Source: Candidatus Nezhaarchaeota archaeon WYZ-LMO8
GTDB lineage: Archaea; Thermoproteota; Methanomethylicia; Nezhaarchaeales; WYZ-LMO8
Length of the DNA: 38,013 nt
NCBI GenBank assembly: GCA_004347965.1
Contig: QNVF01000008.1
Coordinates: 1 to 38,013 of the forward strand
Reading direction: 5' to 3'
Positions within the stretch are counted from its first letter, which is position 1. Each line of letters starts with the position of its first letter. Positions 21,001-24,000 of this stretch are shown one piece after another. The position numbers are program-made.

Positions 21001-24000
21001 ACATAATTCATGCATCTGACAGCAAGGAAAGTGCTGATAGGGAGATCAAGATTTTCTTTGATGAGGAGGAGCTGTGCAGCTACTCGAGAGCTGATGAGCT
21101 TTGGCTTTAAAGGCATTAGAGGTCTTCTAATCGACAAGTTAAAGAGCGTACTCTTCGGTTTTCATCACGCTAAACTATTTGAGAGGAGGTGTCATGTTGT
21201 GAGTAGCGTAGAGAGTAAGAGGATTAGGTCGCCAATACTTTGCGTACTGGGGCATGTTGACGTTGGGAAGACGCTTCTCCTAGACAAGATTAGAGGTACT
21301 GCAACGATGTTTAGGGAAGTTGGGGCCATGATGCAGCGCTCTTCAGGGGGCGCTGCATGGTAGACCCAACACATTGGAGCTTCTTTCCTGCCTTGGTCTG
21401 CTCTTGAGAAGATATGTGGTCCATTACTTAAGAGTATAAGTGTTGAGATTAAGATACCTGGCTTCTTGGTCATTGATACTCCAGGTCATGAGGTCTTCGT
21501 TAACTTGAGGAGGAGAGGAGGCTCGATAGCTGACATGGCTATTCTGGTTATAGACATCCTTGAAGGGTTTGAGGAGATAACTTATGAGTGTTTGGAGATC
21601 CTGAAGGCTAGGAAGACCCCATTTGTGGTTGCTGCAAACAAGATAGATAAGATACCTGGATGGGTTGAGAACGAGTTTAAGCCTTTCATTGAGACAATAA
21701 AGCTGCAGCCTCCTCACGTTCAAAAGAGGCTTGATGAGCTCGTCTACAACATAGTTGCTAAGTTTGAAGAGTTGGGATTCCAAGCTGATAGATATGATAG
21801 GATAAGGGACTTCACGAGGACTGTAGCTATAATACCTACCAGCGCTAAGACTGGAGAGGGCATACCAGATCTTTTACTTGTCTTAGCTGGCTTATCTCAA
21901 AGATACATGTTAAAGAGGCTCTACGTTGAGGAATCAACGGCTAAGGGGGTAGTGCTTGAGTGCAGGGAGCTACCAGGCTTGGGTACGGTAGCTGACGTGA
22001 TAATCTACGATGGCATATTAAGAAAGGATGACACGATAGTGCTTGGCGGGCTCAAGGATCCCATAGTTACTAAGATCAGAAGCTTACTAATGCCTAAGCC
22101 AATGGATGAGATGAGGGATCCTGAGGATAAGTTCAAGAGCATTGATGAAGTTACGGCAGCTGCTGGTGTGAGGATTGTAGCTCATGGGCTTGATGAAGCC
22201 GTAGCTGGAAGCCCCCTATTTTCAGCGAGAAGTCAAGCTGAGATAGAGATGGCCATAAAGCAGGTATTTGAGGAGATGGCGAAGATCAGGATAACAACAG
22301 ACATCACTGGAGTTGTAGTCAAAGCTGACACACTAGGTTCTCTTGAAGCGCTGGTGCTAAAACTGCAGGAGCATGGCGTTCCGGTAAGGCTTGCTGATGT
22401 AGGTAAGATATCTAAGAGGGATGTGGTGGAAGCCTCCATAACGAGGGAGAAGAACCCGCACTATGGTGTGATTTTGGCGTTCAATGTAGGCATAAACCCT
22501 GATGCCGAACAGGAAGTAGAAAGTAGGGGTATACCGGTCTTCAGGAGCAACGTCATCTACAGGCTGATAGATGAGTACTTAGAATGGACCAAGAAGAGGA
22601 TGGAGGAGGAACGTAGACAGACTCTATCCTCCCTAATACTGCCAGGTAAAGCGCAGATACTAAAGGGCTACGTCTTCAGGAGGAGCGACCCAGCAATAGT
22701 TGGAGTCGAAATATTGACTGGAAGGTTGAGACCAGGATATCCATTAATGAACTCTAAAGGTAGGAGACTCGGTGTGATAATGCAGATACAGGAGCAGAAG
22801 AAGAGTTTAAGTGAGGCTGTAGCTAGACAAGCTGTTGCAATATCGATTAAGGGTGACGTGATAATAGGTAGGCAAGTCGATGAAGGAGATTACATCTACG
22901 TTGACGTACCCCCGGAGCACGTAAGGATATTGAAGGAGAAGTTCTTGGATCAATTATCGAAGGAAGAGCTTGAGCTCCTCGATGAAATAGTTAAAATGAG
23001 AAAAGCTGCTGGTAGATACTAGTCGTGCTCGACGACCTCAAAGTTTTTAGCTAAGTCGTAGAGTGTGTTCATGCTAAGGGGTGAAAGTAACGCCCGAGTT
23101 TAAAGTGGTTGTATCTGATCCATCAACTGGAAAAGCTCAGCAAGTAACTGTTAGCGGACCACAAGCAAATGCATTGATAGGTCTCAGGATAGGAGACGAG
23201 GTGGACGGTGCATTGATTGGAGTGCCCGGAGTAAGGCTTGTAATTAAAGGAGGAAGTGATAGAAGCGGAGCTCCTATGAGAGCTGATCTTCCAGGTCCTG
23301 TAAAGCGAAGATTACTGCTAAGTCAGGGTCCAGGATTTAGGCCAACGAGAAAGGGTTTGAGGAAGAGGAAGCTTGTCAGAGGAAACACGGTATCTGAGGA
23401 CATAGTTCAGATTAACATGGTTATAAAGCGTGAGGAGGTTAAGCATGGCTGAAGAGTGGATGAAGAGACAAGCTGAACTTAACATCGGTACAACGGGTCA
23501 CGTAGATCACGGGAAGACGACCTTGACTTGGGCTCTATCTGGAGTATGGGCTTCGAGACACTCTGAGGAGCTAAGGAGAGGGATAACTATTAAGCTGGGT
23601 TATGCAGATACAATCGTGTTGAAGTGCCCTAAGTGCCCACCTCCACAATGCTACACAACTTATGCCCTATCAGGAAGTACATGTAAGCATTGTGGATCTA
23701 AACTAGAGTTTGTTAGGAAGTACTCATTCGTAGACTGCCCTGGACACGAGATTGCACGCCCATAGCGGGCGTGCAACGTGATATGCTAATGGCTACAATG
23801 CTTGCAGGAGCAACGATGTTCGATGGCGCCATACTGGTAATAGATGCTACGGTTCCATGCCCTCAACCTCAAACGCGAGAGCACTTAAAGGCTCTTGAGA
23901 TAATGGACGTGAAGAACGTAGTAGTAGTGCAGAACAAGATTGAGGTTGTCCCGAAGGAGAAGGTTATAGAGAACTATCGTCAAATAAGGGAGTTTCTAAA

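Follow-up and report, generated by a model that had tools for sequence, protein, structure and literature searches.

Archaeal protein genes are intron-free in textbook accounts. A bulge-helix-bulge (BHB) intron in the cbf5 pre-mRNA was reportedly described by Watanabe et al. in 2002. The available part of a later paper places the cbf5 intron in the Desulfurococcales and Sulfolobales and states that, as of 2009, pre-mRNA splicing was confirmed for no other archaeal gene (Yokobori et al. 2009, PMC2738675), and archaeal mRNA introns are absent from the accessible portion of a 2026 review of non-canonical splicing. The cbf5 intron is a short intron of a coding gene, spliced by proteins, with a BHB that is cut between the second and third base of each bulge; it lies within a catalytic motif, disrupts the reading frame and is patchily distributed with secondary losses, and the EndA of its hosts is hetero-oligomeric. 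Archaeal tRNA and rRNA introns have the same recognition structure; EndA cuts them out and RtcB joins the exons. The splicing of HAC1/XBP1 mRNA by IRE1 and RtcB is an analogy only, without common membership: the accessible parts of two papers (PMC13149111, PMC8718801) describe spliceosome-free removal of a short intron by a structure-specific endonuclease, RtcB-type ligation and a change of frame, although the endonuclease IRE1 is unrelated and the system as a whole is stress-regulated.

An insert sharing the listed traits of the cbf5 intron, with its splicing predicted and the host EndA read as hetero-oligomeric, interrupts the gene for the GTPase aIF5B in the window, the 38,013-nt stretch of contig QNVF01000008.1 of Candidatus Nezhaarchaeota archaeon WYZ-LMO8 analysed here. 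No report of this intron was found in the literature outside subscription journals. The features of the locus are as follows.

21183..21189, plus strand: putative Shine-Dalgarno-like GAGGAGG, 9 nt 5' of the GTG start, by direct reading.
21199..21330, plus strand: aIF5B exon 1, 44 aa, GTG start, P-loop GHVDVGKT, ending EVGAM (NCBIfam NF003078 positions 4-44).
21319..21324, plus strand: 5' strand of the outer helix, GTTGGG, in exon 1, pairing with 21365-21370 (97.8% of cells paired).
21325..21328, plus strand: 5' strand of the 4-bp central helix, GCCA, in the codons Gly42-Ala43-Met44, pairing with 21358-21361 (99.4% of cells paired).
21329..21331, plus strand: 5' bulge TGA, predicted cut 21330/21331 (from geometry, the rule in PMC2738675 and the colinear join 44/45).
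21331..21363, plus strand: BHB intron, 33 nt (from sequence, exon join, relatives' junctions and geometry).
21332..21357, plus strand: inner hairpin, an 11-bp stem of 21332-21342 with 21347-21357 and a loop at 21343-21346 (from the fold; 8 of 8 tested pairs covary).
21358..21361, plus strand: 3' strand of the central helix, TGGT, in the intron (from pairing and covariation).
21361..21363, plus strand: in-frame TAG, at which translation of unspliced RNA would end after 54 codons from the GTG at 21199.
21362..21364, plus strand: 3' bulge AGA, predicted cut 21363/21364 (same basis as the 5' bulge).
21364..23022, plus strand: aIF5B exon 2, 552 aa and stop, starting TQHIGA with the switch I threonine (NF003078 positions 45-591).
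21365..21370, plus strand: 3' strand of the outer helix, CCCAAC, in exon 2, codons Thr45-Gln46-His47 (from pairing and covariation).

The insert separates Met44 from Thr45 within switch I of aIF5B, and the first-pass annotation had placed it exactly, at 21331-21363 between the codons of EVGAM and TQHIGA. With the insert removed the two pieces are colinear in a profile search, position 44 of NF003078 adjoining position 45. By itself, exon 2 reaches 772.7 bits with this model, whose cut-off is 468, and its best PDB match is aIF5B 5fg3 (E 7e-197, from chain residue 50). The G-domain motifs are divided between the pieces, the P-loop GHVDVGKT lying in exon 1 and TQHIGA and DTPGHE in exon 2. The unspliced gene reads mechanically as two ORFs, 21010-21363 and 21466-23022 (518 aa), as had been noted before. 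The first start codon 3' of the insert's stop is at 21466, and no usable start occurs before codon 79 in exon-joined numbering. Since translation of the unspliced RNA would stop after 54 codons and no usable start precedes codon 79, splicing would be obligatory, and the gene very probably needs RNA splicing.

The RNA-library contig reported earlier, the only one over the site, was reproduced (run X1, 188 nt, at 21208-21392); it is unspliced, has a depth of 3.2 and may be DNA carry-over. In the raw-read metatranscriptomes the stretch is covered by no read in X2 and X3 and by one in X4, too few to test splicing, and no exon joint occurs among these sequences. The lack of spliced RNA in this small sample, and the two ORFs from gene callers, would fit a gene that is broken, as a pseudogene, or split into two separately translated pieces, with the hairpin incidental. 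This is scarcely credible. The insert interrupts the sole aIF5B match of a 93%-complete genome; both exon pieces are intact in 41 genomes of the class (50-93% identity) with no other lesion; a product started at 21466 would be without switch I; and a dead or split gene would have no reason to keep a precise BHB by covariation.

The insert and its flanks form an hBHBh' motif: a 4-bp helix lies between two 3-nt bulges on opposite strands, and outside each bulge follows another helix (11 + 4 + 6 pairs). Cutting between the second and third residue of each bulge, the rule given in the available part of PMC2738675, yields the colinear 44/45 join, and intron-less relatives have exactly that junction. 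The 59 nt at 21316-21374 fold with -34 kcal/mol, compared with -17.9 +/- 3.0 for 200 shuffles (z -5.3, none as good). In the unconstrained minimum-energy fold the outer helix and the hairpin are present, but the 4-bp central helix only in part; the BHB drawing is a constrained one, supported by covariation and not by energy. A strict BHB scan of the whole genome ranked the aIF5B insert first among 224 frame-restoring candidates, which are mostly noise. The scan missed the introns of aIF2-gamma and cbf5, which have weak outer helices; one candidate (on C26) represents two adjacent genes, and a thermosome candidate (on C13) is, by eye, a false positive.

Self-splicing introns of groups I and II are far longer than 33 nt, and such an origin is ruled out by this length together with the lack of Rfam matches (E up to 1) in 21100-21600. 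An intein is likewise ruled out, the insert being 11 codons that end in TAG, and 16 of 48 inserts in relatives shifting the frame. The P-loop inteins of archaeal aIF5B, represented by a 1049-aa model (NF011418) whose positions 4-28 align with exon 1 and whose positions from 495 onward align with exon 2, are also G-domain inserts, selfish ones, located about 16 residues upstream. However, they are removed at the protein level, in frame, and comprise hundreds of residues, whereas the insert described here has 33 nt and a stop.

Comparison with relatives supports the earlier proposal that structure rather than sequence is selected. Across 41 junctions of the class 94.1% of cells pair, versus 77.7% after shuffling, and across 48 junctions of two classes 97.3% versus 79.0%; in each case none of 500 shuffles did as well, and none equalled the observed covariation score. 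Controls with slid partners gave 28-42% pairing, against 94-97% observed. All eight pairs of the inner helix have changed on both sides among the 41 junctions, and the outer helix keeps 5-6 of its 6 pairs in all 41 introns. The 4-bp central helix, which had been described as kept in 21 of 21 introns, has its four pairs (GCCA/YGGY) in 40 of the 41, but three of four in G008 (CGGC, with an A.C mismatch). Two of the four pairs vary across classes (CG in 38, GC in 4-5, AU in 2-3), and the exon codon concerned (Ala GCC, Glu GAA/GAG or Gly GGG) co-varies with the 3' arm of the intron. In the third class, by the author's reading, only three of the four central pairs form in four of the seven introns (those of G473 and the f75 trio). 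At the junction, every intron-bearing gene has GGGGCC and ACC, a constraint that is relaxed at synonymous sites in three of four intron-less genomes of family f9.

Of the 62 genomes of the class, 60 gave a match and 58 have a readable junction; G049 and G058 fail at contig edges, and G027 and G059 gave no match. An intron of 22-33 nt occurs at 41 of the 58 junctions and is missing from 17. The 21 of 29 loci counted in the first pass were a sample of these. All 15 genomes of the window's order are interrupted at the identical site, and further families carry the intron, both as had been claimed. The wider statements, that the intron is ancient and shared across the class, hold clade by clade, for the window's order and for families f8 and f9 together (26 of 30), but do not by themselves establish a single origin, and do not extend to f4-f7, whose 13 genomes have neither an intron nor an exon relic of one. 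The four intron-less f9 genomes look like precise losses. One of them, G052, reads exactly GGGGCCATGACCCAGCAC, the junction that had been quoted for intron-less members of the class; G039 and G053 differ from it by one synonymous base each and G031 by several, but the 13 f4-f7 genomes are quite different.

The identical site is also occupied in a second class of the phylum (7 of 13 readable genomes) and in a third (7 of 109), so that the insert sits at this one position in several dozen archaea from hot springs. All 55 introns of the three classes break the reading frame: of the 48 in the first two, 16 shift it and each of the 32 whose length is a multiple of 3 contains a stop, and the seven of the third class break it likewise by the author's reading. 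The protein search behind the phylum-wide view was confined to the archaeal phylum of the window, with about 150 of some 400 matches listed. A pattern scan of 401 genomes of the phylum had a gap range of 16-30, so that introns of 31-33 nt were missed, including the one described here; introns of 16-30 nt with aIF5B exon context were found only in two classes already known to have them. Scan matches in G221, G210 and G025 (contig C7) appear to be in-frame parts of other coding genes, the aIF5B gene of G025 being on a different contig, and the match in G052 is the intron-less gene.

The intron is old: it was in place before the window's order, and likewise a second large clade of the class, radiated, and it was precisely lost at least three to four times (on the aIF5B tree, at least three times in f9 and once in the second class). 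It may instead have been acquired or have spread more than once, at a site that is predisposed or targeted, in which case it would still be spliced by EndA and RtcB and its history alone would differ; possible routes are reverse splicing, recombination with alleles that carry the intron, and degeneration of a mobile BHB intron that once bore an endonuclease. This seems possible but not probable. The site is the same in three classes, in a patchy pattern (41/58, 7/13 readable and 7/109), and intron-bearing clades do not group on a quick aIF5B tree, where at least 7 changes of state are needed. Like the sites of homing elements, it falls where the DNA of the gene is most conserved, and the Gly-Gly and Thr-Gln codons provide GGG/CCC complementarity unaided. 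A second BHB site in the aIF5B P-loop (14 of 109 genomes of the third class) and the P-loop inteins likewise point to this region as a hot spot. On the other hand, frequent precise loss could alone cause the patchiness, none of the 55 cases is a long, ORF-bearing version of the intron, and AU tests, with groups defined after the trait was seen and no hypothesis rejected, leave a single intron-bearing clade unrejected both within the class (p 0.375) and across two classes (p 0.406).

For the locus itself, it is highly likely that the 33 nt are a tRNA-type BHB intron in the aIF5B pre-mRNA, spliced and old. The genome encodes both enzymes such splicing would use: two ORFs with PF01974 and PF02778 (185 and 178 aa, at C12:27378-27935 and C2:24730-25266, each with the N-terminal domain) for EndA, and one uninterrupted PF01139 ORF (601 bits) for RtcB. 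From one His motif, the two EndA paralogues are presumably a catalytic alpha and a structural beta subunit. ARAGORN calls introns in 16 of 40 tRNA genes, and further BHB introns of coding genes occur in aIF2-gamma, cbf5, uS5 and hypD of the same genome. In the transcript of this single-copy, essential GTPase, the last 12 bases of exon 1 and bases 2-7 of exon 2 would pair with each other and with the 3' end of the intron, the remainder of which would form the hairpin. The alpha/beta enzyme would cut between the second and third base of each bulge, and RtcB would ligate the exons, restoring EVGAM-TQHIGA across switch I; in RNA left unspliced, translation would halt inside the intron.

Conditional splicing could in addition make the intron a regulatory switch through which the amount of aIF5B, together with that of aIF2-gamma in family f1, depends on the activity of EndA and RtcB, the unspliced RNA being a deliberate off state that gives only a 54-residue peptide. 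A role of this kind appears unlikely. All 35 introns with a length divisible by 3, third class included, hold an in-frame stop, where about one third would be estimated for random 8-11 codons, but the lineages are not independent and the ending TGGT plus AA or AG itself makes a stop. An unspliced contig is present in the RNA library, subject to the doubt about DNA noted above, and negative regulation is proposed for the cbf5 intron in the available part of PMC2738675. Four lineages, however, have lost the intron without visible compensation.

The neighbouring gene, for aIF2-gamma, has its switch II site occupied in family f1. Occupied G-domain sites are aIF5B switch I in three classes, the aIF5B P-loop in the third class, and aIF2-gamma switch II in one family. 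It is suggested, as a rather doubtful generalization, that tRNA-type introns land repeatedly in the G-domain motifs of archaeal translation GTPases. If so, BHB mini-introns would be, or would descend from, site-specific mobile elements that cross lineages, and mRNA splicing by the tRNA machinery would be routine, and possibly regulatory, for the core translation apparatus in many Thermoproteota, and no oddity of cbf5 alone.

Compared with cbf5, the host gene here is a translation GTPase interrupted at switch I, the site is common to three classes, and the motif conforms strictly to hBHBh', unlike that of most cbf5 introns, which were called unconventional; half of the central helix consists of exon codons co-varying with the intron. 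The enzymes would be those of tRNA and rRNA introns, but here they would act on an mRNA, which is open to ribosomes ahead of splicing, and the exon halves of its helices must also encode conserved amino acids. The co-variation of an exon codon with the intron shows that RNA structure limits the switch I sequence of the protein. For annotation, a call of two ORFs makes aIF5B look truncated or missing. The set of sites and losses provides data on gain and loss of such introns, and the gene offers a clean natural system for the competition of splicing with coupled translation. Across whole orders of these Archaea, an essential initiation factor very probably depends on the tRNA-splicing enzymes.

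A single aIF5B gene, reading from GTG 21199 to a stop at 23020–23022, is split by 33 nt at 21331–21363, between Met44 and Thr45 (the switch-I site). It is the only aIF5B match in the genome and lies within a conserved gene order (eL24, ndk, aIF5B, eS6, aIF2-gamma; window 20464–23765, by Pfam). The 89-aa ORF that the gene caller places upstream has probably been given too early a start, since its ATG (21094) still overlaps the end of ndk. As a start codon, GTG 21199, preceded by GAGGAGG, agrees with the family profile. The upstream piece (44 aa) carries the P-loop GHVDVGKT, ends in EVGAM and covers positions 4–44 of NCBIfam NF003078, while the downstream piece (552 aa, beginning TQHIGA) covers positions 45–591, scoring 772.7 bits where the cut-off is 468. 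The top solved relative of the latter is aIF5B 5fg3 (E 7e-197). The last of the 11 codons of the insert is an in-frame TAG, and the first start codon after it, at 21466, is past switch I. The insert and its flanks form a strict bulge-helix-bulge (BHB) motif, hBHBh', with bulges on opposite strands.

Elements of the BHB motif at the aIF5B insert
21319–21324 with 21365–21370: outer helix, GTTGGG with CCCAAC
21325–21328 with 21358–21361: central helix, GCCA with TGGT
21329–21331 and 21362–21364: 3-nt bulges, TGA and AGA
21332–21342 with 21347–21357: inner hairpin, 11 bp

The cut rule described for cbf5 in passages of PMC2738675, between the second and third bulge base, places the predicted cuts at exactly 21330/21331 and 21363/21364. 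The junction stretch has a fold energy of −34 kcal/mol (z = −5.3 relative to shuffles). In the unconstrained fold of this stretch the central helix is incomplete; the BHB structure given here is therefore based on geometry and comparison. No Rfam family matches at the insert. In a strict BHB scan of the whole genome with a frame-restoration filter, the site ranked first of 224 candidates.

Within the class Methanomethylicia, 60 of 62 genomes have an aIF5B match and 58 junctions are readable. An intron of 22–33 nt is present in 41 of these, and absent from 17. The first-pass annotation had reported it at the identical site in all 15 genomes of the order, which is correct (15/15), and in further families of the class, as holds for f8 (1/1) and f9 (25/29), with other members of the class uninterrupted, as are f4 (0/2), f5 (0/1), f6 (0/6) and f7 (0/4). 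It occurs throughout families f1 (10/10), f2 (4/4) and f3 (1/1). In f4–f7 the exons code for EAGGI or EPGTM, and the exon halves of the helices cannot form. The four intron-less f9 genomes all retain EVGAM; in one, G052, the junction reads GGGGCCATGACCCAGCAC, and the other three differ synonymously at bases that never vary among the intron-bearing genes. Precise loss with a later relaxation of constraint would be expected to leave this pattern.

The same annotation held that the hairpin sequence varies while its pairing is kept, and covariation bears this out. Across the 41 class junctions, 94.1% of cells are paired, compared with 77.7% in column shuffles (0 of 500 reach the observed value); the shuffle counts overstate independence as the sequences are relatives, but controls with partners slid by 1–3 columns, which keep relatedness, give the same outcome (28–42% paired). 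All eight inner-helix pairs have changed on both sides. With seven introns of a second class of the same phylum added, pairing is 97.3% (79.0% in shuffles), and two of the four central-helix pairs vary between CG (38), GC (4–5) and AU (2–3). Protein codon 43 therefore changes jointly with the 3' arm of the intron: Ala GCC, Glu GAA/GAG and Gly GGG covary with TGGY, TTTC/TCTC and TCCT.

The intron extends beyond the class and is much more widespread than the first-pass annotation had indicated. Of the 17 genomes of the second class, 15 have a match and 13 a readable junction; seven of these 13 carry an intron at the identical Met/Thr site, from families f23 (4/4), f32 (2/2) and f34 (1/1). Family f17 (6 genomes) lacks the intron, though nested among intron-bearing families. 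In one genome of this class, G139 (contamination given as 4%), aIF5B is present twice, each time without the intron and on separate contigs (loci L075 and L087), a duplicate or a mixed bin. In a third, large class, 121 genomes were sampled and 109 gave an exon-1 match; by reading of 20 flagged loci plus G108, the switch-I site is occupied in seven (G473, G403, G421, G416, G449, G475, G431), and 14 of the 109 have a BHB intron at another site, within the P-loop coding region between LGH and VD(T/H)GKT. The latter are G108, G420, G430, G415, G435, G444, G294, G467, G464, G454, G461 and the f75 trio G449, G475 and G431 (loci L062 for G108, L180–L189, L176, L178 and L179); the trio has both introns in one aIF5B gene. 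The gene is a single long open frame in 83 genomes, and eight lie at contig ends or were not read. Separately, the aIF5B match at G335:C8:21308–22954 lies within a 1035-aa open frame that is probably an intein-bearing aIF5B of the NF011418 type.

In the genomes read, the switch-I introns total 55 over the three classes. Each of the 48 from the first two classes disrupts the reading frame: 16 shift it, and 32 of 32 whose length is divisible by three contain a stop; the seven of the third class, read by eye, also break it, bringing the divisible-by-three introns with an in-frame stop to 35 of 35. About half of these stops arise from a TGGT+AA/AG ending, and the rest are inside the hairpin. They may reflect selection against read-through into switch I.

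A quick IQ-TREE analysis of 77 exon-2 proteins gave six well-supported lineages (own order, 99; f8+f9, 99; second class, 100; f5+f6+f7, 100; f4; and a group of other classes) on an unresolved backbone, with a minimum of seven changes of intron state. Within f9, the intron-less G031 is sister to the intron-bearing G032 (98), G052 and G053 form an intron-less pair (100), and the intron-less G039 is nested in an intron-bearing genus. These placements imply at least three precise losses in f9, or two losses and a regain; one further loss occurred in the second class. AU tests did not reject a single clade of own order, f8 and f9 (p 0.375), nor one that also includes the second class (p 0.406), but the groups were picked after the trait was seen, and non-rejection does not demonstrate a single clade. 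The description of the intron as ancient thus stands in that it predates each radiation in which it is present, where aIF5B identity drops to 50–65%; it may have had one origin or several.

The genome encodes two EndA proteins, both of which contain the N-terminal and the C-terminal EndA domain. A His within a GIDHAPF stretch is present in only one of the two; we take this one as a putative catalytic alpha subunit and the other as a putative structural beta subunit. RtcB is uninterrupted. Of 40 tRNA genes, 16 are predicted by ARAGORN to contain introns, two of which are implausibly long. RNA data from four runs were placed on window 20900–22100. The unspliced RNA-library contig noted previously was found again (run X1, 188 nt, depth 3.2, spanning 21208–21392), and could represent either pre-mRNA or carried-over DNA; read counts in the three raw-read runs were 0, 0 and 1, with no joint reported.

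Other coding genes of this genome are also interrupted.

Other coding-gene inserts
Window 23751–23782: aIF2-gamma, BHB intron of 32 nt directly after DCPGHE (switch II)
G000:C1 ~76650–76700 (L096), minus strand: cbf5, 22-nt insert in the catalytic Asp codon (GTLD/PKVTG)
L092:142–170 (G000:C72): uS5, strict BHB insert of 29 nt with a 9-bp hairpin
L093:661–685 (G000:C11), minus strand: hypD, BHB insert of 22 nt after HVCG

The aIF2-gamma intron has a CACG/CGTG central helix and a 10-bp hairpin, and its exon pieces match NF003077 at 2–96 and 97–411. Unlike the aIF5B intron, which is far older, it is family-restricted, being present (31–35 nt) in 10/10 genomes of f1 and in none of the other 25 readable loci of the class and second class. 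The Pfam TruB_N match of cbf5 begins only at profile position 13, and exon 2 begins at position 17 of Ribosomal_S5 in uS5 and at position 29 of HypD in hypD.

Full-text literature searches for an aIF5B intron, including with splicing endonuclease or bulge-helix-bulge, found no paper. Passages of PMC2738675 state that pre-mRNA splicing had been confirmed for no gene besides cbf5, propose a negative regulatory role for that intron, and suggest its secondary loss, perhaps via reverse-transcribed spliced mRNA; those of a 2026 review (PMC13149111) leave cbf5 unmentioned. The region of aIF5B around the insert attracts such insertions. On comparative sequence evidence, the insert is a real and conserved BHB intron, held under structural constraint in the gene for an essential translation factor and predicted to be spliced in vivo, a newly found case of the same kind as the cbf5 pre-mRNA intron.
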